A stretch of 64,000 nt of DNA from Thermoanaerobaculia bacterium. GTDB lineage: Bacteria; Acidobacteriota; Thermoanaerobaculia; Multivoradales; UBA5704. The DNA is taken from NCBI GenBank assembly GCA_044868005.1, contig JBIOVX010000237.1, positions 3,852 through 67,851 of the forward strand. The letters are read 5' to 3'. Shown here in pieces: positions 6,826 through 54,786 of the stretch; positions within the stretch are counted from its first letter, which is position 1; each line of letters begins with the position of its first letter. The notes below the pieces were generated by a model that saw only the letters and a list, made by a program, of their open reading frames with translations, searched no databases and was not told the DNA's origin. The position numbers and the translations under genes are program-made.

Positions 6826-7995
6826 ATGATCGCTTCCCAGGCTGAAGCCCCGGAGCCGTTCGAGCCCGACCGCAGGCTCGCCGAATACGAGATGCTGCTC
6901 GAGATCGGCGTCAAGCTCGCCGGCACTCTCGATCTCCAACGGGTGCTGCAACTGGCTCTCGAGCACGCCGAGCAGGTCTGCCGGGCCGAGACCAGCTCGA
7001 TCTGGGAGCTCGACGAAGAGCGGCGGGAGCTCTTCTTCCGCGTCGTGCGCGGACACGCGGCGGGAGCCATCCGCGGTCTGCGGGTGCCGGTGGGCGAGGG
7101 GATCGTCGGCAGCGTCGCCGAGTCCGGCGAGGCCGCGGCGGTCAACGACGTGACCGCCGATCCGCGCTGGCACGGCGATCCCAAGGGAGCTTTCCAGACG
7201 CGGGCGATCCTCGCCGTGCCCCTGCTCGCCCGCGGCGCCGTCATCGGCGTCGTGCAGCTCCTGAACCCGGTGGACCGCGACCACTTCACGGCGGGCGACG
7301 TCTGGCGCATGCGCCAGTTCGCCGCCATCCTCGCGCCGACGCTGCAGAACGCCCGCCTCTACGCGGCGCAGCGCCGGCAGTTCTTCAACATGGTGACGGC
7401 GCTGGCGGAGACGCTGGAGAAGCGCGATCCCTATACCGGCGGCCACGTCCGCCGCGTCGTCGGCTACTCGTTGCTGCTCGGCGCCGAGATGGGGCTCGGC
7501 CGCGAGGACCTGCGCGAGCTGCGCCTCGCCGCCACGCTGCACGACATCGGCAAGATCACGACGCCGGACCGCATCCTCGGCAAGCCCTCGCCCCTCGATC
7601 CCGACGAGGCGGAGATCATGCGCCGGCACGCGGCGGACGGCGCTTCCATCGCCAGCCACCTCGCCAACCCGTGGGTGCTGCACGGCGTGCGCAGCCATCA
7701 CGAAAGGGTGGACGGCAAGGGATATCCGGACGGTCTGAAGGACGCCGACATCCCGCTCGCGCCGCGCATCATCGCCGTGGCGGACACCTACGACGCCATC
7801 ACCACCAGCCGTCCCTACCGCGCCGGCCTGCCGCCGCAGCGCGCCGCCGCCGAGATCTTCGCCGGCGCCGGCAGCCAATTCTGCCCGCAGGTCGTGGCGG
7901 CCTTCCGCAAGCTGTTCGAGGACGGCCGGTTCCGGCTGGAGACTGCCGATGATCTGCTGTTGTCGGGCGAGGTGCAGGTGTTGGGGACGGCGTGA
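6826..7995 (+). CDS. GAF domain / HD-GYP phosphodiesterase
   Basis: ORF 6826..7995 with AGGAGG upstream. N-terminal GAF-like domain and C-terminal HD-GYP signature (ATLHDIGKI, HHERVDGKGYPDGL). Confidence 0.9.
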   Translation: MIASQAEAPEPFEPDRRLAEYEMLLEIGVKLAGTLDLQRVLQLALEHAEQVCRAETSSIWELDEERRELFFRVVRGHAAGAIRGLRVPVGEGIVGSVAESGEAAAVNDVTADPRWHGDPKGAFQTRAILAVPLLARGAVIGVVQLLNPVDRDHFTAGDVWRMRQFAAILAPTLQNARLYAAQRRQFFNMVTALAETLEKRDPYTGGHVRRVVGYSLLLGAEMGLGREDLRELRLAATLHDIGKITTPDRILGKPSPLDPDEAEIMRRHAADGASIASHLANPWVLHGVRSHHERVDGKGYPDGLKDADIPLAPRIIAVADTYDAITTSRPYRAGLPPQRAAAEIFAGAGSQFCPQVVAAFRKLFEDGRFRLETADDLLLSGEVQVLGTA

Positions 7996-8025
7996 GGACT
8001 GTACTCATTGGCGCGCTACCGAAGG

Positions 8026-8679
8026 TTAGCTATTGTCTCTTGATCGATCAAAAATATCCTCAGCGCTATTACTTGCCTTCAACGTCTTTTGCATACTCCT
8101 GCGGACGATGAAGGCTATGACAATTGGGATAACATAACTCCAGGCTAGAACGAAGTATGCAATCTCCAATTGGCCAGAAGCCCAGAGGAAAGTAGATAAG
8201 AGAGCGGTACCAGAGATCTGAAAGCCGTAAAAGAAAACACGGATCGTTCGAGTTAGCTTGATAGCCAAGTGCTCGCGATACCGAGCTTTCGGATCCTTCT
8301 GACGGAGATTGCTAGCAGTGAAATCTAGCAACGCAAGACTCACATCTTGGCCACCATCTGTATTGCCGTTTATGAAATCTGCGATTTCGATTCTTCTTGT
8401 GCGAAACCGTTGTGCCGCGCGGGCATACCAGGCGTCAAGATAAAGGAAGACAAGAGGTATCAGGCTGCTGGCGGATATGAGCCGTACATCACTCTCAGCC
8501 ACTTCACTGACTCCGAGGCCAACCCCGAGCGTAAGTGTCCACAGAGCCACGGAAAATTGCCTGAGGTGATATTGAACTCCTTCAAGGTGCACGATTCTTT
8601 GCTCAAGTAGCGGTAGCTCAAGCTTGATGATCTCTAGCTGTCTATCTGTGAGTTCTGAGAGATGGTCGCCCTTAGTCAT
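8026..8679 (-). CDS. Small four-helix membrane protein, unknown family (island gene 2, candidate effector)
   Basis: ORF 8026..8679 (-) in the lowest-GC part of the window. A ~40-aa N-terminal amphipathic helix (LSELTDRQLEIIKLELPLLEQRIVHLEG) is followed by hydrophobic helices at aa ~42-58, 67-86, 146-167 and 172-192. They are arranged 2+2 around a ~60-aa charged loop. No signal peptide and no catalytic motif. Confidence 0.75.
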   Translation of the reverse strand: MTKGDHLSELTDRQLEIIKLELPLLEQRIVHLEGVQYHLRQFSVALWTLTLGVGLGVSEVAESDVRLISASSLIPLVFLYLDAWYARAAQRFRTRRIEIADFINGNTDGGQDVSLALLDFTASNLRQKDPKARYREHLAIKLTRTIRVFFYGFQISGTALLSTFLWASGQLEIAYFVLAWSYVIPIVIAFIVRRSMQKTLKASNSAEDIFDRSRDNS

Positions 8680-8882
8680 GGATGAGTTTTACTCCCAAGA
8701 TCGGCTATTCCGAAGTGGGCCTCCGCAGGCGTTACGAAGTCCTCGACCCGGTTGCTGAGAGACGCTGCCAAGCCCGAATCACTCACTCCTGGAAACCTTC
8801 GAGAAGAGTTCCGTTTGTGCAGATGAATCACAGCTGCTCCTCTGGTCCAGCCAACTGCCGTGAGGATAATCCTCGCCCGCCA

Positions 8883-11522
8883 TTATCGGGCGCCTTCCGG
8901 CTGGCGCTCAATATCGACCAGGATAGTGTCTAGATCGACGTGATCCGTCGGGCTTTGCCTAAAACGTAGCTCCCAGGTGGCATCATGCTCGCGTTCGTGC
9001 TTTAGGACATCGCGCAACTCCTCGGGAAGGTTTTCGGCGCGTACCTCTCCATAGCGGATGTTTCGAAACGCTCCCGCGAGCTGTCGAATTTTACGATTCG
9101 AAGTGTCATCCTTCAGGCAGAAGAAAGCCTTCAGGACCTGCGCTGAGACCTTCTTGACGTCAGGATGCTGAAGCTGCAATTGCAAGGCGCCCTGGTAGAC
9201 CATTGAGCGCCGCTGAGCATCACCGCCGCCCTCATTAAGGTGTACCGCGTCAAGACTCAGGCGGGATTTGAAGTCCGGTTCCTTGGAATCGAGTAGTTTC
9301 TGCATTTCCTCGGGAGTGCCGGTAGACCGCAATTCGGTCGTCCCGGCGAATAGCCAGATGCAAGGGTCAAGCTTGAAGAGGTGACCTCCCCGCAGATACG
9401 AGCCGTCCTCCAGCACCGTCAGAAAAAGGTCGTAGACCGGCAAGCCTTCGACATGGGAGTTAATCTCGTCAAAAAAGACGACATGAGTTCGGTTGCGCTC
9501 TTGAGCCTGCGCGCTGGCAAGAGCGTCGAACCAGGAATTAATATTTTGCCGGCTAACGAGTTGGGTAATGTTGAAAAAAAGATGAGGCATGCCAAGAGCT
9601 GCCGCGAGCTTCGACACCAGGAAGGACTTGCCCGACCCAGGGAGGGCGATCAGCATGGCGCTGAAGGAATTCGCGCTGGGCTGGTGAAGGTAATCCTTTA
9701 GCGCCGAGAGCAGACGTGCTATCTCGCGGCGCCGCGAGTCGATAACCTCGATGTACCCGTCTAACTCGTCCATGGCCCGCCACAGCTCAAGGCTATAGCG
9801 CCGCGAGCTTGCATCTCTGGCTATGATGCCAGTCGCCTGTCGCGACGTCTCCCAAAAGTCGCGCTCCTGGGTCCAGCTCAGCGGAAGTACCTGAATGCTG
9901 GGACGGGTTCGCGATGGGAGCACGGTCGCAGTGGCCGTCCTTCGGTAGCTCCCGAAGGAAGTGTCATAGGGGAACTCCCTGTTCTCAAGGCTTCCCGGCT
10001 CTTCACCGAAGGTCTTAAGCGTTTGAATGTTGCCCTGCACGACGTCATAGGCTGCCTTTAGGGCGATCTCGAGCATCTCGGTTCTCCCCGGAGCATCGCC
10101 AACGGCAGCGCCCTTGATCGCATCGCTAACCCCAGCATCCGAAAGGATGATCTGGGAGACAAGCGCGGAGAAGAACATGCTGGCCCGCCCTGAGAGTTCC
10201 TCGCTCACTTCGTCCAAGATGGTCTTGGGCTGGTAGTAGCCAGTCCGTTCCTCTCCATTACCTTCGACGGCGAGGAGGCTTAAACCCTTGGGCATGGCGA
10301 CGACTAGTCGGGGTTGTCTCTCAAGCCCGGGATACCGATCTGAATGTGCGTCCCCGAGGAAGTCTTCGAGTCGGTCCAAGCTTTCCGCGGTGGGCTGCTC
10401 CTCACCGACGAACCACTTGTATATAGGGTGGTCGCTATCTTGGGCGCCTGGAGCAATCCCCTCGCGCTCCATTTGGGCGATGGCCATGGGCGGGAGGAAG
10501 AGCAGGCGCAGCATCCCGTACATCTCTTTTTTTGCCAGTGTATCTAGATAGGTCGGATGGAACTGCTTGCTTGAGATGAACCACTGAGTCTCCCTGTTTA
10601 TGAGGCCCACTGTATGCAACGCTTCGAGCAGAGTAAGTGTGGTTGTGCCCTTGCCGAGATCCTTGACCACGACATAGCGGAAGGGTTTTTGGCTCCCAGT
10701 GGAGTCATTCGTCGCAGGAGGGGCATGGAGTAGGTCCTCGGCGACCGTCGTGAGCGACTCTCGGATGCTCGGGAAGTGCTCTAAGCCGCCTTCGTAATCG
10801 AGGCGTAGCTTCAAGGCCTCGACATCGCGTAGGAGATGCTGCTGCCAAGTAGCGAAGGCGAGCCGTTCCGGATCGAACGGGATCTCAGGGATCTGACGCA
10901 ATAGCTCTTCGAGCCTCGTTAATTCGTAGTCGCGCCCTCCCTGGACTGGTTGGTAACGAAGCTCGAAGTCCACCCGGCGGTCGAGGACCAGCCCGCCCGG
11001 CGTCTCAGCCTGCAGGTTGTAGAGTCGATAGACGCGTGTGGTACCAACCTCCTTCCAGGGGCTGCTGGCCGCTGCCTCGGAATAGGCAGGGGCCAGGTTC
11101 TTCAGATACAAGCCATCGAGCTGTTGATAGTGAATGTGTTGAGGCTTTACACGTCTAAGAGTGAAAGGGTTGATTCCGTCTAAGTAGCGCGGATGGAACA
11201 TTTTGTAGAGTTTGGGCTCGTCATCCTCGGACCAAATACCGATCCCAAGAATCGAGAATGGAGGTGCGTTGACTCGCTCCTGAGGTGGGATCCAGATCTC
11301 TCCTCCGGACTCAGTGGGCTCCCGGAAACGATTCATCCAATAGAGAAAGCGCGCCACCCGTCCGGCGCCGCAGAAGGTCATGACGCGAGAATTGACGTTA
11401 CCCAAGGCTCGCAGGTGTGCCTTGCCCTCCATCGTGCTGAAGCTTGATCTATGCTTGGCTAGCACCCAGTTCTCGTCCACGACCCAGTCGCCGAGCACGA
11501 GGATCTCAATCGGTTTGGACAT
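8883..11522 (-). CDS. PfkB/ribokinase-like domain fused to AAA+ ATPase, unknown family (island gene 1)
   Basis: ORF 8883..11570 (-). Start trimmed to ATG 11522 (MSKPIEILVLGDW) with AAGGAG 6 nt upstream. The N-terminal ~460 aa carry PfkB-like motifs (ILVLGDWVVDENW, FCGAGRVARFL, VVVKDLGKGTTTL). The AAA+ core has Walker A LPGSGKS (nt 9624..9644), Walker B VVFFDE (nt 9465..9482), LFAGTTE and DFKSRLS. Confidence 0.8.
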   Translation of the reverse strand: MSKPIEILVLGDWVVDENWVLAKHRSSFSTMEGKAHLRALGNVNSRVMTFCGAGRVARFLYWMNRFREPTESGGEIWIPPQERVNAPPFSILGIGIWSEDDEPKLYKMFHPRYLDGINPFTLRRVKPQHIHYQQLDGLYLKNLAPAYSEAAASSPWKEVGTTRVYRLYNLQAETPGGLVLDRRVDFELRYQPVQGGRDYELTRLEELLRQIPEIPFDPERLAFATWQQHLLRDVEALKLRLDYEGGLEHFPSIRESLTTVAEDLLHAPPATNDSTGSQKPFRYVVVKDLGKGTTTLTLLEALHTVGLINRETQWFISSKQFHPTYLDTLAKKEMYGMLRLLFLPPMAIAQMEREGIAPGAQDSDHPIYKWFVGEEQPTAESLDRLEDFLGDAHSDRYPGLERQPRLVVAMPKGLSLLAVEGNGEERTGYYQPKTILDEVSEELSGRASMFFSALVSQIILSDAGVSDAIKGAAVGDAPGRTEMLEIALKAAYDVVQGNIQTLKTFGEEPGSLENREFPYDTSFGSYRRTATATVLPSRTRPSIQVLPLSWTQERDFWETSRQATGIIARDASSRRYSLELWRAMDELDGYIEVIDSRRREIARLLSALKDYLHQPSANSFSAMLIALPGSGKSFLVSKLAAALGMPHLFFNITQLVSRQNINSWFDALASAQAQERNRTHVVFFDEINSHVEGLPVYDLFLTVLEDGSYLRGGHLFKLDPCIWLFAGTTELRSTGTPEEMQKLLDSKEPDFKSRLSLDAVHLNEGGGDAQRRSMVYQGALQLQLQHPDVKKVSAQVLKAFFCLKDDTSNRKIRQLAGAFRNIRYGEVRAENLPEELRDVLKHEREHDATWELRFRQSPTDHVDLDTILVDIERQPEGAR

Positions 11523-11639
11523 GATGGACTCCTTGGGAAAGGCGGATGTCGTGGCGGAGACTGCCACCATACGACTTAGAGTAGCCTCGGGTCACTTGTG
11601 CCACCCCTACCTTTCGACAATCTTTGAAATATCGACGAT

Positions 11640-11645
11640 ATTATA
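11640..11645 (-). promoter_or_regulatory. Possible -10 box (TATAAT) for island gene 1
   Basis: Reverse-strand TATAAT at 11645..11640, ~118 nt upstream of ATG 11522. AGACTG lies 17 nt further upstream as a weak -35. Pattern only. Confidence 0.25.
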
Positions 11646-11807
11646 GCGGAGATTGGAAGCCGCAGTCTGGGGCACAAACAGGGGAACCTGAGGTCCTCTC
11701 CCGTACTCGCGGCTCTGCCGAAACACCCGGCGAGTCCATGACTTGCTCCTGTACAGGATTGCCTACTGGCCTGCGCTGGTATCATCTCCCGAAGGACATG
11801 CCACCTC

Positions 11808-13412
11808 ATGCTGCGGTTGCGCTTCGTCGTCAATGGTGAGGATCGCGTCGTTTCGCTGACGGGCAGCGGCCGGGTCCGGCTCGGCCGCGGCAGCGACAAC
11901 GACGTGGTGCTCCCCGACTCCTCCGTCTCCCGCTATCACGCCGAGATCCTCCGCGAGCCCGACGGCTGGTCGGTCCACGACCTCAAGAGCACCAACGGCG
12001 TCCAGGTCAACGGCGTGCCGGTGGAGAAAGCGCCGCTGCGCCCCGGCGACCTGCTGGGCGTCGGCTCGTTCCAGGTCCGCGTCGATGCGGACGAGCCGGT
12101 CTCCGTGCGGCCGCCGAAGCCGGCGGCGCCGGAGAAGGAGGAGGGCTTCGGCAACGCCACGATCATCCGGCCGCTCTCCGCCTTCGCGGCGGACTACGGC
12201 CTCGCCGGCGAGGCGGCGCGGCCCTCTCCGGAGGCCGGGGACGAGGAGTACGTCCGCCGCATGTTCGGCTTCCTCACCCGCCTGGCGCGCATGCTCACCC
12301 TCGCCGAGTCGGTGGACGACGTGCTGTCGCGCGTGCTCGACATGGCCTTCGAGGCCTTCCCGGTGGACCGCGGCTTCATCCTGCTCTCGGACGACTCGGG
12401 CGAGCTGGTCTGCGAGCTGGCGCGCGTCAAGAGCCGCGTGCAGTTCCGCCCCGCCGGCGAGGTGCCGGTCTCCCGCACCATGCTGCAGGCGGTGATGCGC
12501 GAGCGCGTGGCGCTCGTCACCTTCGACGCCCAGGCGGACCAGCGCCTCTCCGGCGGCGAGTCCATCCGCATGCACAAGATCCGCTCGGCGATGTGCGCTC
12601 CGCTGTGGTCGGGCGAGCGCATCATGGGCGTCATCCAGGTGGATTCACCGTTCCAGGTGGGAGCGTTCGGCGAGCGCGATCTCGACGTGCTCACGACGCT
12701 CGCCAACTATGTCGCGGTGGCCGTCGAGCGCATCCGCTACGCGCGCACGGCCGAGCGCGAAAGACTGGCGCGCACGCGGCTCGAGCGCTACCACTCGCCG
12801 GGCGTCATCGAAGAGGTGATGCGCCGCGGCGACGAAGGCGTGCAGAGCCTGCAGAGCGCCGAGGCCACGGTGCTCTTCGCCGACCTCGTGGGCTTCACCG
12901 CCTTCGCCGAGAACGCGCCGCCCGAGAGCGTTGCCGAATCGCTCGACGCCTTCCTGGACCTCTCGGTGGAAGCCATCTTCCGCGCCGGCGGCACCCTCGA
13001 CAAGTTCATCGGCGACTGCGTCATGGCCTTCTTCGGCGCTCCCGTGGCGCAGCCGGACCACGCGCTGCGGGCCGTGCGCGCCGCGATCGAGATCCAGCAG
13101 GGGCTCGCCGCCTGGAACGCCCGCCGGACCGCCGAGGGCCTGCCCGGCTTCAAGGTCCGCATCGGCGTCAACAGCGGTCCGGTGGTGGTGGGGGACATCG
13201 GCAGCTCCCGCCGGGTGGACTACACCGTGCTCGGCAACACCGTCAACGTGGCGGCGCGCCTGGAAGCCCTCGTCGCCCAGCCGGACGACGTCGTGCTCGG
13301 TCCCGAGACCCACCGCCTGCTCAACGGCACGATTCAAACCGAGGCGCTCGGCGAGCTGCAACTGAAGGGACTGCAGCAGAGGATCCGGGCGTATAGGGTG
13401 GCGCGGACGTGA
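11808..13412 (+). CDS. FHA-GAF-adenylate/guanylate cyclase
   Basis: ORF 11808..13412. FHA (GRGSDNDVVLPDSSVSRYHAEI, STNGVQVNG), a central GAF and a class III cyclase domain (ATVLFADLVGFTAF, FIGDCVMAFFGAP, RIGVNSGPVVVGDIGS, YTVLGNTVNVAARLE). Confidence 0.9.
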   Translation: MLRLRFVVNGEDRVVSLTGSGRVRLGRGSDNDVVLPDSSVSRYHAEILREPDGWSVHDLKSTNGVQVNGVPVEKAPLRPGDLLGVGSFQVRVDADEPVSVRPPKPAAPEKEEGFGNATIIRPLSAFAADYGLAGEAARPSPEAGDEEYVRRMFGFLTRLARMLTLAESVDDVLSRVLDMAFEAFPVDRGFILLSDDSGELVCELARVKSRVQFRPAGEVPVSRTMLQAVMRERVALVTFDAQADQRLSGGESIRMHKIRSAMCAPLWSGERIMGVIQVDSPFQVGAFGERDLDVLTTLANYVAVAVERIRYARTAERERLARTRLERYHSPGVIEEVMRRGDEGVQSLQSAEATVLFADLVGFTAFAENAPPESVAESLDAFLDLSVEAIFRAGGTLDKFIGDCVMAFFGAPVAQPDHALRAVRAAIEIQQGLAAWNARRTAEGLPGFKVRIGVNSGPVVVGDIGSSRRVDYTVLGNTVNVAARLEALVAQPDDVVLGPETHRLLNGTIQTEALGELQLKGLQQRIRAYRVART

Positions 13413-14789: not shown

Positions 14790-15026
14790 CGACTCCTCCT
14801 TTGATAGTCAAACTTCGATGAGCGGATAAGGTACCGCTGGCGGGCGGTGGATGCAAGGCCTCAACCGCCCGAGGCGATAAGAGAGCATGCTGCCAAGATG
14901 AGATGTGGTTGACGGCCCGGATCTTGCAACCTTTTTGAATCGGTTATCGCTAGCCCCGAAAATCTTTTGCCTATACTGGGTTGACTGATCGGGGTTTGCT
15001 CGAGTGACCGACTAGGAGTTTCCATC

Positions 15027-15401
15027 ATGTCCAACACCACCACCGTAGAGATCCACCCCAACGTCCTATCGACCGCCGCCGTCATCGGCGACAGCGTCGT
15101 CAACCGTATGGGGGAGAAATTCGGCAAGATCGAGGAGCTCATGCTCGACTTGGAGAAGGGGCGCGTCGCCTATGCCGTCCTCTCCTTCCGCGGCGTCCCG
15201 GAGATGAGCGAGAAGCTGTTCGCTATTCCGTTTGAGGCCCTGAAGCTCGACGCCAGCCGTGAGCACTTCACGCTCGACGTCGACCAGAACAAGCTGAAGA
15301 ACGCCCCCGGCTTCGACAAGAATCACCCCCCGCAGGCTTCGGACCGCACCTGGGGCGCCGAGGTCTACAAGTTCTACGGTATCAAGCCCTACTGGCAGTA
15401 A
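15027..15401 (+). CDS. PRC-barrel domain protein
   Basis: ORF 15027..15401 with AGGAG upstream. VIGDSVVNRMGEKFGKIEELMLDLEKGRVAYAVLSFRG is typical of PRC-barrel proteins. Confidence 0.85.
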   Translation: MSNTTTVEIHPNVLSTAAVIGDSVVNRMGEKFGKIEELMLDLEKGRVAYAVLSFRGVPEMSEKLFAIPFEALKLDASREHFTLDVDQNKLKNAPGFDKNHPPQASDRTWGAEVYKFYGIKPYWQ

Positions 15402-15426
15402 GATCGGGGCAGTATCGAGCAGGACG

Positions 15427-15458
15427 GAGGGCGGCCGTACGGCCGCCCTCTTTGTTTT
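15427..15458 (+). terminator. Rho-independent terminator
   Basis: GAGGGCGGCC-gtac-GGCCGCCCTC (15427..15450) followed by TTTGTTTT (15451..15458), 26 nt after the PRC-barrel stop. Confidence 0.75.
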
Positions 15459-15493
15459 GGGCGAGGCCGCGGCGACCGGACGATCGGGACAAA

Positions 15494-16012
15494 TTACATG
15501 TAGGAAATGCCGATCTTGTCCCGCCTGGCGTTATCCCGTCCCTTTGCGGCCACTCCTTTACCTGCTCTCCCCTGGGGCAGCAGAGCCCAAGGGCCCAAGG
15601 CATCCAATGCCTCTTGCTCGCTCAACCTTCTCGCCTGCTCCATAACTCCCGACGGTACCCACTTGGGAAATGGGACTTCCCGGGTAGCATGTCGACCGGA
15701 AGCCGTGTGCTCTTCATGCACCTGCGCTATCTGAACGGCCGGAAATCGCTCCGCCAGGCGCACTAAGGCCGGCCATAACCGCCGGTGTACGAAAGTGATT
15801 TTTCCATTCACGAGACGGCAAACGAGCACATCGTCAGAATCCGTTACTGCCTGAAAGACAGCGAAGATTTGATGGCTTTTGGGATGAGACCACCAGCTTC
15901 CTTTGATGGGCTCGCCGGCAATCGCCTCTGCAAGTCGGAGAACAGGACCTTTAGCGGACGCAAGGACTACACCATGCTTTTGAACAAAGGCGATCGCTTC
16001 GTCGGCGGTCAT
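15494..16012 (-). CDS. Hypothetical protein
   Basis: ORF 15494..16012 (-). It lies 14 nt downstream of the CheB/CheR-HK gene on the same strand. The sequence is non-repetitive and globular-looking (MTADEAIAFVQKHGVVLASAKGPVLRLAEAIAGEPIKGSWWSHPKSH). G+C is somewhat lower than in neighbours. Family not recognised. Confidence 0.6.
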   Translation of the reverse strand: MTADEAIAFVQKHGVVLASAKGPVLRLAEAIAGEPIKGSWWSHPKSHQIFAVFQAVTDSDDVLVCRLVNGKITFVHRRLWPALVRLAERFPAVQIAQVHEEHTASGRHATREVPFPKWVPSGVMEQARRLSEQEALDALGPWALLPQGRAGKGVAAKGRDNARRDKIGISYM

Positions 16013-16025
16013 GGTCCGGTCATGG

Positions 16026-34287: not shown

Positions 34288-34444
34288 GGGCGGAGCTAGC
34301 TTGCCCTTTACGCGAAATCTCCCGGCGCGCAATGAAGCTTGCGGAGAGAGCTGGCCTGCGCGAAACCCTTTTTGCAAGGCCCAGCATCTTGGGCCGGCCG
34401 GCTCGAAGGAAAACGTGGCAGGTCCGAGTCCTACCTAGGTAGGT

Positions 34445-35824
34445 TTATTTACGGATTCGAGGGCGAGCTTTTCCGGCTCCTCCGTGCGATCTCTTCCCGG
34501 CTCCTCTTGCGCGGCCTGATTCGGCCTCTCTTGTGTGAGGTGCCGGAGACTTGAACTGCTCCAGCTCTGCGAGGGCTGATTCGGCGTAGGTCACAATCTC
34601 GTTTAGGGCGCTGCGTCGAACGGTGTCACGGACGCTCGCGTCCAACACTAGGTCGGCTGCTCTGTAAGCCACCAGTTGCTTGAGGATGCGGAACGTTGGT
34701 TCCTTAATCGGCAGCCCGATATCGCCGTCGATGCCAAACTGGCTGCCAAGATCGACCAGCCGGACGATCTCCTCGATGAAGCGCTCAATCGGCGGTCTGG
34801 GTCGGGGACGAAGCGAGCGAGGCCATGGCCATATCGTATCCGGAAAGACAATCGGCCTATAACTTACTCGTATCGTGGCCCTCTGTTCTTCTGGGTTGAT
34901 GTTCACAACCTCTACACGCTTATATGGCCGGTGTGATACGTTCGAAGAGTCGCCATACTCAAACACACTGCCCTCAACAAAGTCATTTGCGTCCTTGCTG
35001 CCTAGCAGGTAGGAGTGATTGTCCCAAAAGTAGTGCATCAGGATCGCGGCGCGTGGGATGGCCGCATCCCATCCGGCTGTTGTTCGGAACTCGATCAAGG
35101 TGCCGCCGGGCAGCTCTGCCGCGAGGAGTCCGGGCAGGTCGCGCCGGTGTAGCGGTCGCAGCTCAACGACCTCCTCGCTGAACCCTTGCGAAGTTGAGCT
35201 CCATACGCGCGACTCGTCCAACCAACCAAGCCGGCGCATATTGGCGGCGTTCATGCCAGGTCCGATCTCGGTGTAGTTGCTGTCCGGTGCGATATGGCAA
35301 GTATTCCAGGTACTCATGATGTCCCAGGGGTCTTGGTAGTCCTCCGTTGAGCCCTCGCGTCGGGAGTGGTCTAGGCCGTACCCGTGCGCCATTTCTTGTC
35401 CTAGCGCGGTCGGTCGAAACGATCCCGGGTCGCAAACAACAGCCCGACCCCCCAATATGCCGAACAGATCGGTTAGGACGTTCATGCAGACCACGACCCC
35501 GTAGAAGGCGTTCAAGTCAACCCCCTGCCCTGCCGCAGTGCGCTTGGCGAGGTCAACCAGCGCCCCGCGGTCGACCTGGCCCGTGGATGGCGTCGCATTG
35601 CCGACGTATGCGCTTAGGCTTTGGGGCAGCGTGAACCAGCCGAAGACCTGAGAGCCCGTCAAGTCTAGGTTGCCGTGCGACATGTGATCGAAGAACTCGA
35701 CCATATTTCTAGTTCCCGCACCCGCCGGCGTGAATAGCTTCTCGAAGAAGCTGCGTGGTCGCGGCTCCGCGTTCTGATCGTTCCACTTGCAGAGAAGCAC
35801 CGCCCAAGGCGTTTTCTTGGCCAT
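34445..35824 (-). CDS. Cytoplasmic metzincin/M6-like peptidase-fold protein with variant zinc motif (QEMAHGYGLDH)
   Basis: ORF 34445..35824 (-) in a low-GC islet, with GGAGG upstream. The N-terminus AVLLCKWNDQ...FFEKLF...MVEFFDHMSHGNLDLTGSQVFGWFTLPQS resembles the M6 (InhA-like) metalloprotease domain. nt 35366..35398 encode QEMAHGYGLDH where HExxHxxGxxH is expected. No signal peptide. The C-terminus is helical with an Arg/Lys-rich tail. Confidence 0.6.
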   Translation of the reverse strand: MAKKTPWAVLLCKWNDQNAEPRPRSFFEKLFTPAGAGTRNMVEFFDHMSHGNLDLTGSQVFGWFTLPQSLSAYVGNATPSTGQVDRGALVDLAKRTAAGQGVDLNAFYGVVVCMNVLTDLFGILGGRAVVCDPGSFRPTALGQEMAHGYGLDHSRREGSTEDYQDPWDIMSTWNTCHIAPDSNYTEIGPGMNAANMRRLGWLDESRVWSSTSQGFSEEVVELRPLHRRDLPGLLAAELPGGTLIEFRTTAGWDAAIPRAAILMHYFWDNHSYLLGSKDANDFVEGSVFEYGDSSNVSHRPYKRVEVVNINPEEQRATIRVSYRPIVFPDTIWPWPRSLRPRPRPPIERFIEEIVRLVDLGSQFGIDGDIGLPIKEPTFRILKQLVAYRAADLVLDASVRDTVRRSALNEIVTYAESALAELEQFKSPAPHTREAESGRARGAGKRSHGGAGKARPRIRK

Positions 35825-36003
35825 CGCTACCTCCTATCGCTAAGTATCGACAGGTGACTTGCTCGGACCCTTCACTCGGCGCCATCTCGGACTGCGTTCG
35901 GCCACTGTTCCTCAGGTCGGTATATTGTGTCAATGTTATGAAGTAGTTTGCAAGTGATTATGGAGACGGCCGGTGTTCGACCTGTGCGAGGAGCCGGACA
36001 GCT

Positions 36004-36972
36004 TCATCTCGGCCGTTCGCCCACTCGTGACTCAGGATGTCTCCGGCCCACCCCCACCTCTTCCAACACCTCCGACAGCTTCTCGCCGCCGCTACGCACC
36101 GCGAAGTCGAGCGTGCGGATGGGGAAGGGAATCGTGATGCCGTTCTCGTCGAAGGCGCGCTTCAGCCGTTCGATCGCCTCGCTGCGGGCCGCGAGATAGT
36201 CCGCCTGCTTGAAGGTGAAATCGATCCAGAAGCGCACCACGAGATGGATAGAGCTGCCTCCGAATTCCTCGAAGAAGAGCTCCACGTCCGTATCCGCCTT
36301 GCGCGTCGACACCTGCCTGACGGCGCGGGTCGCGACCCGCCTCACCTTCTCCAGATCGTCGCCGTAGGAGACCCCGACCTCGAGATCGATCCGCCGCGTC
36401 CCTGTCGTGCTGTAGTTGGTGATCGGGTTTTCGAACACCTGCTTGTTGGGGATTAGCAGGACCTGTCCCTGCTGGGTCCGCAGCTCCGTCCAGCGCAGGT
36501 GCACCCGCTTCACGATGCCGAGGAAGTCCTGGCTCTGGATGAGATGGCCGGTGCGGAAAGGACGCTGGATCGAAAGGTAGATCCCCGCCATGAAATTGGT
36601 GGCGATGTCCTGGAAGGCGAGGCCGAGCGCGAGGCCGAGGATGCCGGCGCCGGCGAGCAGCGAGGCCACCGTCTTCTGCAAGCCGAGGATGCCGAGGGAG
36701 ACGAAGAAGCCGGCGGCGACGAAGGCCAGGTACACCGTCTGGCAGATCAGGCGGTTGACCTGCTCGCTGTGCGAGACGCGCCGCAGCAGGCGGGCGGAGA
36801 GATTCCGAGCGAGCCGGGCGAACAGCCAGAAGGCGAGGAGGACGAGCACCGCGACGACCAGGTTCGGCAGGGCCAGGATGAAGCTCCGGACCCATCCAGT
36901 CAGCTTGGCGGTGAGCAGGCTCCACGCCTTGGAAATACCCATGCCGGGAGTTTTTTGCAACCTTCGCGCCAT
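36004..36972 (-). CDS. Mechanosensitive ion channel (MscS family)
   Basis: ORF 36004..36972 (-). Three N-terminal TM helices. The conserved beta domain is FRTGHLIQSQDFLGIVKRVHLRWTELRTQQGQVLLIPNKQVF. Confidence 0.9.
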   Translation of the reverse strand: MARRLQKTPGMGISKAWSLLTAKLTGWVRSFILALPNLVVAVLVLLAFWLFARLARNLSARLLRRVSHSEQVNRLICQTVYLAFVAAGFFVSLGILGLQKTVASLLAGAGILGLALGLAFQDIATNFMAGIYLSIQRPFRTGHLIQSQDFLGIVKRVHLRWTELRTQQGQVLLIPNKQVFENPITNYSTTGTRRIDLEVGVSYGDDLEKVRRVATRAVRQVSTRKADTDVELFFEEFGGSSIHLVVRFWIDFTFKQADYLAARSEAIERLKRAFDENGITIPFPIRTLDFAVRSGGEKLSEVLEEVGVGRRHPESRVGERPR

Positions 36973-38986: not shown

Positions 38987-39727
38987 TCATGAAGGCAACT
39001 TCCTTGCCGGCACCAGCGCTTCCCAGAAGCGGACCTCGTTCATCACGCCGATCTCGGGATCCTCGGCGAACTGCTCCAGACCGGCGAAGACCCGCAATCG
39101 CCCGTCCCGCAGGTGGGCGAAGCGGTCGCCCATGAGGATCGCCTCCTTGAGGTCGTGCGTGACGAACAGGGAGGTGATGCGGTAGGCGGCGGCCACGCGC
39201 TTGAACAGCGCCTGCATGCCGGCGCGGGTCTCGGCGTCGAGGTTGCCGAAAGGCTCGTCGAGCAGGAGCAGAGCCGGCTGCACGATCAGGGCACGGCCGA
39301 AGGAGACCCGCTGCCGCTGGCCGCCGGAGATCTGGTGCGGCCGCTTGCGGGCGTGGGGCTCCAGCTCCAGGCTGGCGATCATCTCCGCCACCCGCCGCTC
39401 CAGCTCGCCGCCGCGCACGCCGCGCAGGCGCAGCCCGAAGGCGACGTTCTCCCAGACGTCCAGGTGCGGGAAGAGCAGCGGCTCCTGGTAGAGGTAGACG
39501 ACGCCCCGGCTCTCGGGCGGCACGCCGTCGAGGCGCCGGCCGTCGAGCAGCAGCTCGCCGCGGTCGGCAGGCTGCAGGCCGGCGATGATCTTCAGCAGGG
39601 TCGTCTTGCCGGTGCCCGAGCGGCCGAGCACGCTCACCGTCTCGTCATGCGACAGATCGAAGGAGACGTCCTCCAGGACCGGCTCGGAGCCGAACGATTT
39701 CGAAAGGCCGCGGATCTCGAGGAACAC
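38987..39727 (-). CDS. ABC transporter ATP-binding protein
   Basis: ORF 38987..39727 (-). Walker A GRSGTGKTT, signature ISGGQRQRV, Walker B LLLLDEPF. Confidence 0.9.
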   Translation of the reverse strand: MFLEIRGLSKSFGSEPVLEDVSFDLSHDETVSVLGRSGTGKTTLLKIIAGLQPADRGELLLDGRRLDGVPPESRGVVYLYQEPLLFPHLDVWENVAFGLRLRGVRGGELERRVAEMIASLELEPHARKRPHQISGGQRQRVSFGRALIVQPALLLLDEPFGNLDAETRAGMQALFKRVAAAYRITSLFVTHDLKEAILMGDRFAHLRDGRLRVFAGLEQFAEDPEIGVMNEVRFWEALVPARKLPS

Positions 39728-39729
39728 GC

Positions 39730-40488
39730 CTATACCGCCCGGAAGAGGAACCGCTTGTTGAGCCAGAGCACCAGCACCGGCGGCACGACGAGCAGGCAGC
39801 TCGCGAGAGCGGCGTAGAACACGTTGGCCTCGCCGATGAAGTCGTAGACCTTGAGGGGTAGCGTCTTCACCCGTCCGCTACCGACGAGAACCGTGAGGCC
39901 GTACTGGAACCACGAGATCAGGAAGGTCTGGAAGAAGCCGAGCAGCAGCGTGCCGCGCGAGAGGGGGATGAGGACGCGCCGGTAGACCTGCCAGGTGCCG
40001 CCGCCCAGGGTGCGCACGAGGTCCTCCAGCGCTCGCATGCGCGGGCTCCACAGCGACTGGAAGAGGACGATGGCGAAGGCGTAGGCGAAGATCGTCTGCG
40101 CCAGCACCACGCCGGCGACGGTGCCCGAGAGCCCCGCCTGGATGGCTACGTAGAGCAGGCAGACCCCCAGGATGACGGGCGACAGCGCGAAGGGGACATA
40201 GGCGAGGAAGAGCAGCAGTCGCCGCCGCGGGTGGTAGGCCACGTGCTTCGAGGTGACGTAGCCGCAGACGGTGGAGAGCAGGGCCACGGAGGCCGAGATC
40301 AGCACCGAGACGCCGAGGCTCGCCGCGAGCCCGCCGCGCCCGGAGAGGACGGCCGTCCAGCGCGCCGCCGTCCAGCGCGACGGCAGCACGTGCGGAAACG
40401 GCCACGCGCCGGCGAAGGAGAGCGCGGCGAGGACGATGAAAGGCAGCAGGCAGAGGAACACCACGAGGGCGGCGAGGAGCCTCTTCAC
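39730..40488 (-). CDS. ABC transporter permease
   Basis: ORF 39730..40752 (-). Start trimmed to GTG 40488 (VKRLLAALVVFLCLL), overlapping the upstream permease stop as GTGA. Six-TM binding-protein-dependent permease pattern (EDLVRTLGGGTWQVYRRVLIPL). Confidence 0.8.
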   Translation of the reverse strand: MKRLLAALVVFLCLLPFIVLAALSFAGAWPFPHVLPSRWTAARWTAVLSGRGGLAASLGVSVLISASVALLSTVCGYVTSKHVAYHPRRRLLLFLAYVPFALSPVILGVCLLYVAIQAGLSGTVAGVVLAQTIFAYAFAIVLFQSLWSPRMRALEDLVRTLGGGTWQVYRRVLIPLSRGTLLLGFFQTFLISWFQYGLTVLVGSGRVKTLPLKVYDFIGEANVFYAALASCLLVVPPVLVLWLNKRFLFRAV

Positions 40489-41330
40489 CCATCCATCCTC
40501 GACCTGCGGAACAAGCCGGCGACGAGCGCCATGACGGCGGCGGTGTAGAGCAGGGCCACTACGAAGGCCTCGGGCTTCTGCGCCAGGTCGAACGAGGCGA
40601 ACTTGCGCATCGTCAGCACGGAGAGCATCTGCGGCGCCTGGCGGCCGAGGAGCAGGGGGATCTCGTAGGAGCCCAGCACCAAGACGAAGAGGAGCGCCAG
40701 GTTCGTGCCCGCGGCGTGCAGCAGCAGCGGCACCGCCACCCGCCACCGGCACTGGCGCGAGCTGGCGCCGAGCGAGCGGGCGAGGGCCGCCAGCTCCTCC
40801 ACCCGCTCGCTCTCGTAGAGCCTGGCGAAGAGCAGGGCGAAGAAGGGAGCGGCGAGGGCGGTGTGAGTCAGCACGATGCCCACCGCCCAGCGGTCCTGTA
40901 CCAGGGGGATGAAGCCCGCCGGCCCCCGCAGCAGCCCCAGCCGCAGCAGGGCCCGCGCCACGACCCCGCCGCCGGTGAGCATCTGGAAGGTGAAGAACGC
41001 CGCCACGGCGCCCGGCAACGCCAGCGGCAGGTAGAGGGCGTGCCCGAGCAGGCCGCGGTCCAGCCGGCCCGGAAAGGCGAGGGTCAGGGCGAGGCCGAGG
41101 GCTGCCGTGAGCGCCACCACCGCCGCGGCCACGGCGGCGCTCAGGGCCACGGATTCCCAGATCTCCCGGCTGCCCAGCACGGCGAGCCAGGAGCGGGCGG
41201 TGAGCCCCTCGCGCAGCAGGCCGGCGAGCCCGAGGCTGTAGAGCAGGGCGTAGAGGAGGCTCGCCGCGATCGGCAGCACGGCGAGCGCGAGGAACAGCAA
41301 CAGCCCCAGCGTGCCCGACCTACTTCTCAA
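40485..41330 (-). CDS. ABC transporter permease
   Basis: ORF 40485..41330 (-). Multi-TM with the EAA-like loop EELAALARSLGASSRQCRWRVAVPLL. It overlaps the SBP gene end by 11 nt. Confidence 0.85.
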   Translation of the reverse strand: MRSRSGTLGLLLFLALAVLPIAASLLYALLYSLGLAGLLREGLTARSWLAVLGSREIWESVALSAAVAAAVVALTAALGLALTLAFPGRLDRGLLGHALYLPLALPGAVAAFFTFQMLTGGGVVARALLRLGLLRGPAGFIPLVQDRWAVGIVLTHTALAAPFFALLFARLYESERVEELAALARSLGASSRQCRWRVAVPLLLHAAGTNLALLFVLVLGSYEIPLLLGRQAPQMLSVLTMRKFASFDLAQKPEAFVVALLYTAAVMALVAGLFRRSRMDG

Positions 41331-42558
41331 GGACCTCTTTCCGGAAGTCGTCGAACATGCGGATCATGTACTCGGCGGCGGGCTCGCGCAGCGCCTTCGG
41401 CAGGATCTCGGACCGCTTCGGCGAGAACCGCCGCTGCGGCACGTTCTCGAACTTCGTTCGCCACTCGGCGGGCAGGCGGGCGAGGTCGAGCGCCGTGCCG
41501 TCTCCCCACACGACCGGCTTGTGCTTCTCGTACTGCGCCTCGGGCGAGATGAAGAAGTTCAGCGTCACCAGCGCGCCGGCGAGGTGCGGCGACCGCCTGG
41601 CGATCCCCATGTAGTGCGAGTTCAGGATCGTCCCAGAGTCGAGCACGTAGGCGCGGGAGGTCTCCGGCAGCAGCCCCTGGATCACCTTGTTGTCCACCTC
41701 GCCGTCGTTGTTGCTCATGGTGAAGTCCACCTCGCCCGCCGCGAAGAGCTGGTGGAGCTGGGCGACGCTCGCCGGGAAGGTCTCGCCCCGCTTCCAGAAG
41801 TATGGCTTCAGGCCGTTCACCCACTCCCAGAGCTCCGCCGAGACGCGCTTGTACTTGGCCTCGTCGAACGGCCCGTCGAGCGAGCCCGGACCGCCGGCCA
41901 TGTCGATCATCAGCGACTTCAGGAAGGTCATGCCGCAGAAGGAGGTGTCGAAGGTGAAGCGGCCGGGATGCGCCTTCACCCAGGCGGCGAGCTGCCGGCG
42001 GTCGCGGGGCGGCTCCTGCACGCGCGCGCCGTCGTAGATGAGCGCGAGCTGGACGTTGCCCCACGGGCACTCGTATCCTTTCACCTCCTGCTGGAAGTCG
42101 TAGCGGATGAAAGGGTTCGTGAAGTCGATGTAGCGGGCGTTGGGGAGCTTCGCCGTGAACGGGCCGAAGAGGGCGTCGATCTGGCGGAGCTGATAGAAGG
42201 TCTCGCCGTTGATCCACATCAGGTCGGTGCCGCTCTGCTCCTTGCCGGCCTCCATCTCCGTCATCAGCGTGGAGACGATCTGGCTCCCCTGGCCGCTGAC
42301 GACGTCGAGGTCGATGCCGTGCCGCTGCTTCAGGCGCGGCGACACCCAGTCGTTCATGTAGGCGTTGATGAACGGGTCGCCCATCCACATGGTCAGCGTG
42401 ACCTTCTGCCCGCGCGCCTCGCGCTCGATCTCCGCCCAGGGGCGCGAGAGGAGATCCGCTGCAGTCTTTCCCTTCTCAGGCGCGCTCGGGCCACAACCGG
42501 AACAACCGGCGAGGAGGCCGAGGAGGACGGCGAAGGACAGGATGGCAGGGCGTGTCAC
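41320..42558 (-). CDS. ABC transporter substrate-binding lipoprotein (YnjB-like)
   Basis: ORF 41320..42558 (-), GTG start. Lipoprotein signal MTRPAILSFAVLLGLLAGC. Periplasmic-binding-protein-like sequence (VTLTMWMGDPFINAYMNDWVSPRLKQRHGIDLDVV...). The YnjB resemblance is from memory. Confidence 0.8.
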   Translation of the reverse strand: MTRPAILSFAVLLGLLAGCSGCGPSAPEKGKTAADLLSRPWAEIEREARGQKVTLTMWMGDPFINAYMNDWVSPRLKQRHGIDLDVVSGQGSQIVSTLMTEMEAGKEQSGTDLMWINGETFYQLRQIDALFGPFTAKLPNARYIDFTNPFIRYDFQQEVKGYECPWGNVQLALIYDGARVQEPPRDRRQLAAWVKAHPGRFTFDTSFCGMTFLKSLMIDMAGGPGSLDGPFDEAKYKRVSAELWEWVNGLKPYFWKRGETFPASVAQLHQLFAAGEVDFTMSNNDGEVDNKVIQGLLPETSRAYVLDSGTILNSHYMGIARRSPHLAGALVTLNFFISPEAQYEKHKPVVWGDGTALDLARLPAEWRTKFENVPQRRFSPKRSEILPKALREPAAEYMIRMFDDFRKEVLEK

Positions 42559-42564
42559 GCCTCG

Positions 42565-42695
42565 CTACTCTACAGCCAAGGCGATCTGATTGGCGAACGC
42601 CTCCAGAAGGTGGAGCTGCTCGGGGGAGACGAGCCACTGCGGGTCCGCCGGATGGACGCCGAGCACGCCGACGCCGGTGAGGTGCGCAAAGCCTC
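42565..42695 (-). pseudogene. kdpD: kdpD fragment (end of GAF-like region only)
   Basis: Reverse-strand frame reads RGFAHLTGVGVLGVHPADPQWLVSPEQLHLLEAFANQIALAVE-stop. This matches the KdpD segment recalled as ...GVL.V.......L.PEQ..LLETF...IA.ALER. No start, no TM region and no kinase core are attached. Confidence 0.7.
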
Positions 42696-42697
42696 TC

Positions 42698-43000
42698 TTA
42701 CTGGGTGATGCGGATGACTAGCCAGTCGGAGAGGACTCGGGCGCCGCCGGCGACCGAGCCGTGGTCGCTTCCGCGCTCGCAGATCACCGGCGTGCTCTCG
42801 CCGCCGACCGCGGGCTCGTTGACCAGGGCGACACCCTCGATCACCTCGCCGTCTCCCGGCACGACGTCGCCCGCTTCGACGAGTACGTAATCTCCTTGGT
42901 ATAGATCAGTCGAGGCAATCGGCGTGTAGGTGGCATCGTGCCGCGGCTCCCAGAGCTGCTTGGCGATCCTGGTACGGCGGGTCGTGGCTGGCATACCCAA
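42698..43000 (-). pseudogene. kdpB: kdpB fragment (actuator-domain region of the K+-transporting P-type ATPase)
   Basis: ORF 42698..43000 (-). DLYQGDYVLVEAGDVVPGDGEVIEGVALVNEPAVGGESTPVICERGSDHGSVAGGARVLSDWLVIRITQ parallels E. coli KdpB [65 protein letters not shown]. Only ~90 of ~680 residues are present, and TGES has degraded to GGES. Confidence 0.85.
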
Positions 43001-48113: not shown

Positions 48114-48890
48114 ATGAGCATCCTCCAGCAGCTCGTCGCCGAACTCGACGCCGGACGCGTCAAGGTCGTCGATCTCACCCAGCCGCTCGGTCCGGACACG
48201 CCGGTGATCGGCCTGCCGCCGATCTTCGCATCCTCGCCCGGCGTGACGATGGAGGTGATCTCCCGCTACGACGACAAGGGTCCGGCCTGGTACTGGAACA
48301 CCCTCCATCTCGGCGAGCACACGGGCACGCACTTCGACGCGCCCATTCACTGGATCACCGGCAAGGACCTGCCGGACAACGCCTGCGACACCATCCCGGC
48401 CCACCGCTTCATCGGTCCCGCCTGCGTGATCGACGTCACCGCCGACGTCGAAGCGAACGCGGACTTCCTCCTCACCCGCGAGCGCATCCTCGCCTGGGAG
48501 CAGAAGCACAGCCGCATCCCTCGCGGCGCGTGGGTGCTGCTGCGCACCGGCTGGAGCCGGCGCACCGATCCAAAAGAATTCCTCAACGTCGGCGCCGACG
48601 GTCCGCACAGCCCGGGGTTTCACAAGGATGCAACGATTTTTCTCGCCGAGGAGCGGGACATCCTCGGCGTCGGCGTCGAGACCGTAGGCACGGACGCCGG
48701 ACAAGCCGGCGGCTTCGATCCACCCTTTCCCAATCACACCCTGATGCACGGAGCCGGCAAGTTCGGCCTCGCCAGTCTGCGCAATCTCGACCAGCTCCCG
48801 GCGACGGGAGCCGTCGTCATCGCCGCGCCGCTGAAGATCGTCAACGGCAGCGGCAGTCCGCTGCGGGTGTTGGCGCTGGTGGGGGAGTAA
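48114..48890 (+). CDS. Cyclase-family protein (kynurenine formamidase-like)
   Basis: ORF 48114..48890. The HLGEHTGTHFDAPIHW metal-binding motif is typical of the putative cyclase/arylformamidase family. Confidence 0.85.
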   Translation: MSILQQLVAELDAGRVKVVDLTQPLGPDTPVIGLPPIFASSPGVTMEVISRYDDKGPAWYWNTLHLGEHTGTHFDAPIHWITGKDLPDNACDTIPAHRFIGPACVIDVTADVEANADFLLTRERILAWEQKHSRIPRGAWVLLRTGWSRRTDPKEFLNVGADGPHSPGFHKDATIFLAEERDILGVGVETVGTDAGQAGGFDPPFPNHTLMHGAGKFGLASLRNLDQLPATGAVVIAAPLKIVNGSGSPLRVLALVGE

Positions 48891-48952
48891 ATCCGGCCGG
48901 CGACGCTTGCTAAAGAAGTGACCTCCGCGATCGGTGATACCCTGTCGTAGCC

Positions 48953-49818: not shown

Positions 49819-49836
49819 GGAGCTACAGCACATAAA

Positions 49837-49899
49837 GCACGGCGCCGGCAAGTTCGGCCTCGCCGGCCTGCGCAATCTCGATCAGCTCCCGCCGACGGG
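49837..49899 (+). pseudogene. 63-nt relic of a cyclase-family gene 3' region
   Basis: 49837..49899 aligns without gaps to 48746..48808 inside the intact cyclase gene, with about 57 of 63 identical by eye. It reads HGAGKFGLAGLRNLDQLPPTG versus HGAGKFGLASLRNLDQLPATG. Confidence 0.75.
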
Positions 49900-54767: not shown

Positions 54768-54786
54768 TCGGCTCCGCTGGCTGTAG

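Follow-up and report, generated by a model that had tools for sequence, protein, structure and literature searches.

How does a sharply bounded segment of low G+C content (GC) come to lie between two intact genes of cyclic-nucleotide signalling, and what does it carry? The question is raised by a window of 64,000 nucleotides (nt), the whole stretch of DNA that was analysed, on contig JBIOVX010000237.1 of a soil Thermoanaerobaculia bacterium, in which about 3.8 kb of deviating composition separate a GAF-HD-GYP gene from an FHA-GAF-class III cyclase gene. An earlier reading of the letters alone (hereafter the sequence-only reading) had described this segment as a low-GC insertion. The low-GC observation was confirmed in the present study, and horizontal acquisition without a visible mobility mechanism is supported. 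At a probability of roughly 0.85 we regard 7997 to about 11775 as horizontally acquired cargo at a variable site, that is, as a flexible genomic islet, and include in this reading the exchange against an earlier PMT_2 cargo, recombination in the flanks and our interpretation of the two cargo genes. The locus is composed as follows (aa, amino acids; ORF, open reading frame).

7997..11775, no strand: variable segment (the island), delimited by blastn breakpoints, GC (z = -6.1) and an assembly graph fork at 7996
6826..7995, plus strand: left flank, intact host GAF-HD-GYP (HD_5) gene (Pfam HD_5 1.8e-32, GAF_2 6e-20; 93% protein identity to locus L012)
11808..13412, plus strand: right flank, intact host FHA-GAF-class III cyclase gene (Pfam Guanylate_cyc 3e-26, FHA 2e-19, GAF_2 2e-16; 96% protein identity to L012)
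8883..11522, minus strand: island gene 1, a fusion of a putative PfkB-fold pseudokinase and an AAA+ ATPase, 879 aa; the longest ORF reaches 11570
8026..8679, minus strand: island gene 2, a 217-aa membrane protein with an N-terminal helical segment and four predicted transmembrane segments (ORF, hydropathy)
8680..8882, minus strand: 203-bp spacer between the island genes, with no significant RNA structure
11523..11776, no strand: island-borne region upstream of gene 1, not homologous to the intergenic DNA of relatives

The 3804 nt of 7997-11800 have a GC of 0.556, against a mean of 0.676 (standard deviation 0.020, minimum 0.621) in 525 equal-sized windows from the rest of the 64-kb stretch, which corresponds to z = -6.1. 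In 400-nt sliding windows GC falls from 0.71 (7601-8000) to 0.46 (8001-8400), stays between 0.50 and 0.62 within the island and stands at 0.72 again at 11801-12200. GC at third codon positions (GC3) is 0.491 in the small and 0.680 in the large island gene, compared with 0.918 in the HD-GYP gene, 0.942 in the cyclase gene and 0.89-0.94 in four neighbouring host genes, and the composition-corrected tetranucleotide correlation between the island and the rest of the window (0.674) is the lowest among windows of the same size. All three measures had been proposed as a check by the sequence-only reading, and all deviate strongly. Its five hand counts of G+C per line (24/60, 28/60, 25/60, 47/60 and 39/60) were exact on recount and its placing of the drop a few nt past the HD-GYP stop (TGA, 7995) agrees with both the profile and the breakpoint at 7996, whereas its island average of 'very roughly 50%' was too low, the computed value being 55.6%.

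A scan of the cyclase protein against one genome per species yielded 80 orthologous loci, all of them from Acidobacteriota and most from Thermoanaerobaculia. Neither island gene has a homologue in any of these (0/80, tblastn), and the segment as a whole shows no homology to any of the 80 loci. An HD-GYP orthologue also lies upstream in 25 of them, in 21 of which it is directly adjacent to the cyclase. The empty site that had been suggested for comparison is thus present in 21 loci, and the alternative considered there, that distant relatives would have the same two genes at this locus, was not borne out. Read out from the true stop codon, the gaps at the empty sites measure 2-241 bp; several are only 2-13 bp long, for which reason HD-GYP and cyclase look co-transcribed in some relatives.

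The other four of the 25 loci have a filled gap, and its content differs: L012 carries a Gp49/HigB-like toxin, an HTH antitoxin and a 649-aa PMT_2-type membrane glycosyltransferase, L013 the orthologous PMT_2 gene alone and L023 a 2.9-kb sugar-modification set, and the gap of L018 measures 7.2 kb. The variability of this hotspot is nested, as L013 shares PMT_2 with L012 but is without the toxin-antitoxin pair. In L012 this pair occupies 7205-7880 and consists of a toxin of 107 aa (PF05973, 3.8e-26) and an HTH_3 antitoxin of 119 aa. The cyclase of L012 is 96% identical in protein and about 90% in DNA to that of the window; in blastn, homology between the two stops at window position 7996 and resumes at 11801, and L013 and L023 break a few bases from the same right point.

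In a maximum likelihood tree of the cyclase protein (24 rows) the empty state is found in 19 rows, among them all deep branches. The empty site is ancestral on this tree, and occupancy of the gap arose at least two times. The window belongs to a fully occupied clade, (L023, (L012, (window, L013))), with support of 100/98, and nests there with the two PMT_2 carriers L012 and L013 (100/99). No remnant of the L012-type PMT_2 gene was found in the window. All three of its nearest relatives have other cargo between these breakpoints, and within the clade the window groups with PMT_2 carriers; its lineage therefore most probably swapped an earlier PMT_2 cargo for the low-GC gene pair, which is the parsimonious history. 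Of the term 'insertion', therefore, horizontal acquisition is upheld, while the flank tree and the cargo of the relatives make replacement of earlier cargo likelier than entry into an empty site.

That the two genes are old vertical residents, lost in the relatives and low in GC through a gene-specific constraint, is very improbable on this evidence. Both ORFs are indeed intact with every family-invariant residue, and the island is common to a strain of a second study (run X5) at 97-98% identity. Vertical descent is nevertheless hard to bring in line with absence from 80/80 orthologous loci and the empty state on all deep branches, with a GC3 24-45 points under that of neighbouring genes, with nearest homologues (66% and 69% identity) in unrelated contexts, and with large-gene homologues that are low-GC outliers in eight of nine unrelated contigs.

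The right border is defined by an element of the host:

11777..11785, plus strand: extended -10-like box of the cyclase gene (TGGTATCAT), of host origin and conserved in relatives

Variants of this box (CTGCTATCAT, CTGATATTAT, CTGTTATCAT, CTGCTATGAT or CTGATATCAT) stand upstream of the cyclase ATG in nine relatives (L012, L013, L014, L016, L018, L023, L027, L041 and L087), with the consensus TGnTAT(C/T/G)AT at 13-22 nt from the ATG. Since the box is retained in the window, the border is placed near 11775 and not at the cyclase start (11808). The sequence-only reading had let the island end in a 237-bp spacer before that start; the border is intergenic as it had supposed, and the length holds for the longest ORF (start 11570), but from the likelier ATG at 11522 the spacer amounts to 285 bp. 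Relatives with 2-13 bp between HD-GYP and cyclase are without the box, suggesting that transcription of the cyclase switched between an operonic and an independent mode. In the HD-GYP/cyclase gap of several relatives (L012 9850-9990, L024 9887-10000, L041 9845-10000) palindromic arrays of an AAGGAC(A/N) heptamer were observed, for example AAGGACACCAAGGACAACAAGGATAGCAAGGAC ... GTCCTTGCGGTCCTTGGTGTCCTTGACGTCCTT; these arrays resemble repetitive extragenic palindromes and could promote recombination at the hotspot.

Sharp borders, foreign composition and intact flanks also fit a remnant of a self-mobile element (insertion sequence, transposon, integrative element or prophage fragment) whose recombinase and ends disappeared after site-specific insertion, and large-gene homologues were found beside transposases of the DDE type (L098) and the Y1 type (L099). 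The flanking genes are intact as had been noted, with 93-96% protein identity to those of the nearest relative. We nonetheless consider such a remnant improbable. No integrase, transposase or recombinase domain is present in either island ORF or in the spacers (Pfam matches are confined to AAA in the large ORF), no tRNA in the 64-kb window, and the similarity of the two borders is at chance level (best direct alignment p = 0.2, best inverted p = 0.8 against shuffles), so that the searches agree with the sequence-only reading, which had seen neither integrase, transposase nor tRNA, and no terminal repeats. The words CTGTAC and CCGAAGG, common to both borders, looked suggestive but are likewise at chance level in the border alignment. 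PHROG families give only weak P-loop matches, no relative was found among 2.9 million viral contigs, and three or more further, unrelated cargos are present in this interval, which a recombination hotspot fits better than the attachment site of one element.

The window stems from a metagenome-assembled genome (MAG), and the composition switches abruptly at both borders, both of which could be taken for an assembly or binning artefact joining the DNA of another organism between two Thermoanaerobaculia genes. However, the exact 879-aa product occurs in MAG GCA_044867135.1 (contig JBIOUN010000213.1) and in three further soil-metagenome assemblies, each with the same gene order, and flank, island and flank lie on single contigs in four separately assembled samples (13.7, 9.5, 5.1 and 81.9 kb) with zero differences. 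The whole stretch is present in four soil-metagenome runs of one study (X1-X4), in X1 and X2 with one contig running across flank, island and flank without differences, and run X5 of another study holds pieces of both island genes together with pieces of both flanks (97-98% identity), while only close relatives of the flanks occur in run X6. Moreover, the junctions are exactly intergenic, and both genes as well as the -10 box of the cyclase are intact. A chimeric join is ruled out because independent assemblies carry island and flanks contiguously, and an artefact of any kind appears hardly credible. Compared with the window, the X5 strain has a 5-nt insertion (AAGTC) at 8793 in the inter-gene spacer and lacks 1 nt at 11604, upstream of gene 1, with 97-98% identity kept in both coding regions.

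Run X3 shows the left border in two states. The contig of the HD-GYP side (depth 16.7) ends at 7989 and the island contig (depth 10.9) starts at 7960; a third contig of 347 nt (depth 3.1) agrees with 7960-7996, beyond which it reads CGCCGGCCGTGGTGCCTGAACCCGATCTTG. Downstream of its HD-GYP stop, L012 has nearly this sequence, CGCCGGCCGCGGTGCCTGACCGGATCTTG. The fork at 7996 thus leads into the island on the one hand and into L012-type sequence on the other, and therefore an L012-type strain co-occurs with the island strain and has the same breakpoint.

In the ancestor HD-GYP and cyclase were adjacent, often 2-13 bp apart. Later the gap was filled in the immediate clade of the window, whose strains now carry different cargo between the same two breakpoints. 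Most probably the lineage of the window gave up a PMT_2 glycosyltransferase and received the low-GC pair in its place; the swap would have proceeded through homologous recombination in the two conserved flanks, once DNA of a strain already carrying that cargo had been taken up. Exchange through flanking core genes is the generally accepted mode of movement of replacement-type flexible islands. Such flank-guided recombination is the likeliest route here, although it is one that we infer. Like flexible islands and islets, the segment has a fixed position between conserved genes, deviant composition and no integrase, tRNA or repeats; close strains carry unrelated cargo, including glycosyltransferases and a toxin-antitoxin pair, and alleles co-exist in one population, as judged from contigs. 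It differs in being very small (3.8 kb, two genes), in that its recombination route is reconstructed rather than observed, and in that the hotspot lies inside a HD-GYP/cyclase pair that is operon-like in more distant relatives. The variable islet itself is ordinary, a small flexible islet at a recombination hotspot.

Less ordinary is its large gene, in which the following parts were distinguished.

10008..11522, minus strand: N-terminal PfkB/ribokinase-fold domain, aa 1 to about 505, with insertions of about 200 aa (Foldseek, motif register)
10476..10496, minus strand: position of the NXXE motif, degenerate: LPPMAIA (LPPMAIAQ), in the family (I/L)P(P/Q)xxA or IPQVAA, against TPNLSEFE in HldE and TPNETEAE in RbsK
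10170..10190, minus strand: position of the GAGD anion hole and catalytic base: GRAS with Ser448, in the family MAS, against TGAGDTVI in HldE and IAAGDTFN in RbsK
8886..9677, minus strand: C-terminal AAA+ module, aa about 616-879, with helical lid and tail (Pfam AAA, PF00004)

The ATG at 11522 is the likelier start, being preceded by an AAGGAG Shine-Dalgarno sequence, and the 879-aa product is called in four public assemblies. A perfect TATAAT on the minus strand (11640-11645), 118 nt upstream of this ATG, is a candidate promoter of gene 1. Twelve clusters of homologues came from a word-indexed search; exhaustive HMMER searching gave 1132 proteins with the limit set to E <= 1e-3, and with E <= 1e-30 a total of 319 clusters, mostly of 700-800 aa. 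An AlphaFold2 model of the whole protein, computed from a 68-sequence family alignment, reached a predicted local distance difference test score (pLDDT) of 88.4 and a predicted template modelling score of 0.90.

With the model of residues 1-520 (pLDDT 75.9), Foldseek found 130 matches in the PDB at E <= 1e-3, of which the top 50 are all members of the ribokinase family, the best being the Burkholderia heptose-7-phosphate kinase HldA (4e84; E 2e-8, probability 1.0, template modelling score 0.62 on the target). At the level of sequence this kinship is concealed: PF00294 (PfkB) has no match at E <= 1 in 12 family members, no Pfam or NCBIfam family matches the N-terminal region, and a hidden Markov model (HMM) search of PDB sequences finds no kinase. 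When Escherichia coli hldE and rbsK (from NC_000913.3) were added to the family alignment (MAFFT), several motifs nevertheless fell into register, i.e., the first strand (GDWVVDENW in the island, GDVMLDRYW in the kinase; GDxxxDxxW at 11466-11492), the GG-type loop (CGAGRVA, 11352-11372, and PGGAANVA), the lid strands (TTRVYRLY...RRVDFE, 10962-11045, and TITKLRVL...IRLDFE) and the KG motif (VKDLGKG and LSDYAKG). Alignments by hhalign against the single E. coli HldE and RbsK sequences place these positions sensibly with weak statistics (HldE 11-63, E 8e-4 over 53 columns); S448 is set on D255 of RbsK at E 0.43, which is weak by itself. In the family, A447 and S448 show at least 90% conservation. 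Because the fold is PfkB-like and the NXXE motif and the Asp of GAGD are lost, we call the N-terminal domain a pseudokinase, a putative catalytically dead PfkB/HldA-like kinase fold according to alignment and model.

The AAA+ module scores 29.4 bits against PF00004 (cut-off 21.2), and the family is hit in 12/12 members. Walker A (PGSGKS, aa 628-633, 9624-9641) and Walker B (VVFFDEI, aa 681-687, 9462-9482) are accompanied by a sensor-1-like FAGT (9339-9353) and a conserved DFKSRL (9258-9275); G631, K632, D685, E686 and R754 are invariant across the 68 sequences and R810 is conserved. The module is thus probably an active ATPase. Whole-chain Foldseek searches of the PDB and BFVD were dominated by AAA+ matches (in the PDB ClpA/B/C, Skd3, Vps4, RuvB and HslU, probability 1.0), which reflect this module.

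Compared with known proteins, the 879-aa protein shares with PfkB/ribokinase kinases (HldA/HldE) the fold, the GDxxxDxxW strand, the GG-type loop, the lid strands and the KG motif, but has insertions of about 200 aa, has NXXE and the Asp of GAGD replaced family-wide, escapes PF00294 and, unlike canonical PfkB kinases, is fused to an AAA+ ATPase. Pseudokinases of the PfkB type are known from plants (FLN1 and FLN2). With classical and HCLR-type AAA+ proteins (ClpA/B/C D2, Skd3, Vps4, RuvB, HslU) it has in common Walker A and B, the sensor-1-like Thr, the conserved Arg and an alpha/beta core with helical lid; it differs in its single C-terminal AAA+ module behind a 600-aa non-AAA region, with none of the protease, substrate-recognition N-domain or middle domain of Clp/Hsp100, and its sequence similarity to AAA+ structures is marginal (best PDB HMM E 0.0085). 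NCBIfam and PHROGs yielded nothing meaningful for the large protein, viral contigs held no relatives, a scan of metagenome contigs keyed on the Walker B pattern alone returned one irrelevant locus, and a literature search gave nothing relevant on PfkB/ribokinase-like domains with AAA+ and defence, nor on bacterial PfkB pseudokinases. The architecture of a PfkB pseudokinase joined to AAA+ is undescribed, and its roughly 319 clusters are unnamed in every library searched. We infer a sensor function for the 'dead kinase', which would bind a ligand in its pocket and regulate or target the ATP-driven motor to which it is coupled.

The small gene encodes a protein with predicted transmembrane segments at aa 42-60, 66-85, 146-166 and 172-193 in a 2+2 layout, and its conserved part is the first pair:

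8398..8559, minus strand: conserved core with two transmembrane segments, aa 41-94, RQFSxxLW...P..F..LDAWYARAAQRFR (invariant alignment columns; part matched by PDC-M50A)

Homologues form 12 clusters, and no Pfam, NCBIfam, PHROG or PDB entry matches the 217-aa protein. Two PADLOC models of PDC-M50A match in 12/12 and 5/12 family members, weakly so with best E of 3.8e-5 and 2.8e-6, and the sequence points weakly to a distant relationship with component A of PDC-M50. The likeness consists in the core of aa 41-94, but E does no better than 1e-4 to 1e-6, and the match takes in about 54 of the 217 residues; no PDC-M50 partner gene was recognised beside any homologue, PDC-M50 itself is a computational candidate system only, and no mention of it was found in the literature search. 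In three independent contigs (L094-L096; L094 2954-4912) small-protein homologues lie 82 bp downstream of a 369-aa DUF4062 protein, and DUF4062 with the four-segment homologue is a conserved two-gene unit, which as such has no PADLOC match. A further homologue has an AriA/GajA/OLD-type ATPase at a distance of 1.1 kb, with NACHT and diversity-generating retroelement genes in the vicinity.

Do the two genes then form one system, and does it serve in defence? In its fullest form this would be a functional two-gene defence or abortive-infection system, in which a PfkB-like sensor of an infection-derived sugar phosphate or nucleotide acts through an AAA+ transducer on a membrane-disrupting effector with four transmembrane segments. 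The genes share a strand 203 bp apart and occur together in two populations; PDC-M50A is matched in 12/12 members of the small family, whose homologues follow varied partners (DUF4062, or near an AriA/GajA-like ATPase) as swappable effectors do, and the large family is patchy, low in GC and sometimes found in defence islands. On the other hand, the families never co-occur in the other 15 loci examined (among them, small gene in 0/7 large-gene loci, large gene in 0/5 small-gene loci), their GC3 is 19 points apart, a promoter-like site precedes the small gene (minus strand, 8911-8882, a consensus match only), and the large protein is without a PADLOC match. The large gene cannot depend on its four-segment partner, since it mostly stands alone, and across ten homologue contexts it has no conserved neighbour. 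Such a system is therefore a doubtful proposition. Terminator and promoter scans of the island remained at background level, and in the 203-bp spacer RNA folding gave z = +0.72 against shuffles, with a null Rfam search of the island; hairpins and a coupled small ORF proposed for this spacer are unsupported by folding energy.

Large-gene homologues have a GC 5-13 points below that of their surroundings in 8/9 loci (e.g., 0.570 vs 0.688 and 0.589 vs 0.723), the low-GC outliers being L001-L003, L008, L011 and L097-L099; in all its settings this family has the character of recently transferred DNA, and both cargo families look like frequently transferred accessory genes. The context of L001 includes SIR2-NACHT and an LRR-Roc-COR-TIR protein matching bSEFIR, that of L097 a DruA-like gene, and those of L098 and L099 transposases. 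Defence genes were met in one of two small-family contexts (L092), a small sample. We hold an anti-phage or conflict role of the cargo tentatively, at somewhat below even odds. Its most specific version, that the fusion is an undescribed class of single-protein sensor-motor whose dead HldA-like pocket binds a sugar phosphate, nucleotide-sugar or nucleoside (e.g., one produced or depleted in phage infection) and gates an AAA+ unfoldase or remodeller, newly joined with a PDC-M50A-like effector as a two-gene immune module, is speculative and rather unlikely.

Several points weigh against our reading of the island and its cargo. The donor sequence was not found, the recombination route is reconstructed only, and identical breakpoints are also expected from any insertion that spares both essential flanking genes. 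The two cargo genes may represent two separate acquisitions and no functional pair, because their GC3 differs (0.49 vs 0.68) and their families never co-occur elsewhere. The forked contig of X3 is an assembler contig of 347 nt and low depth, not raw reads, and a matching fork at the right border was not seen in the X3 contigs. As for the large protein, that its catalytic residues are lost follows from sequence alignment and predicted structure, the hhalign register of GAGD being weak alone; neither it nor any longer member of the family shows a recognisable effector domain; it has no significant match in PADLOC-DB v2 (best RmrA at 0.0027, mad8/IetA >0.01, P-loop only); and defence genes occur in only two to three of ten large-family contexts (L001, L097, possibly L011), which is a small sample.

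Other parts of the window deviate as well. At 14860-16025 GC is 0.55-0.62, and the patch holds a 124-aa PRC-barrel protein (15027-15401, plus strand) and an unannotated ORF of 172 aa (15494-16012, minus strand); because of its low GC and because L012 homology ends at 14859, we take it for a probable second islet of variable content, 3 kb away from the first. A low-GC stretch at 34301-36300 contains a 459-aa ORF (34445-35824, minus strand) with an EMAHGYGLDH stretch reminiscent of a metalloprotease motif. Tetranucleotide usage deviates at 39000-43000 and 48500-55000 (root mean square up to 0.43, correlation down to 0.77), with short patches of GC < 0.60 at 48801-49400 and 51401-52100, and these two regions may be further foreign segments.

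For the poorly studied, uncultured Thermoanaerobaculia, an ancestral empty site, three alternative cargos and two co-existing alleles in one soil sample were recovered at a single locus. The exchange may affect cyclic-nucleotide signalling, because it splits the HD-GYP/cyclase pair that is operon-like in more distant relatives. If the large protein is indeed a ligand-gated defence or stress ATPase, a sugar-kinase pseudoenzyme would be a new type of sensor in bacterial conflict systems.

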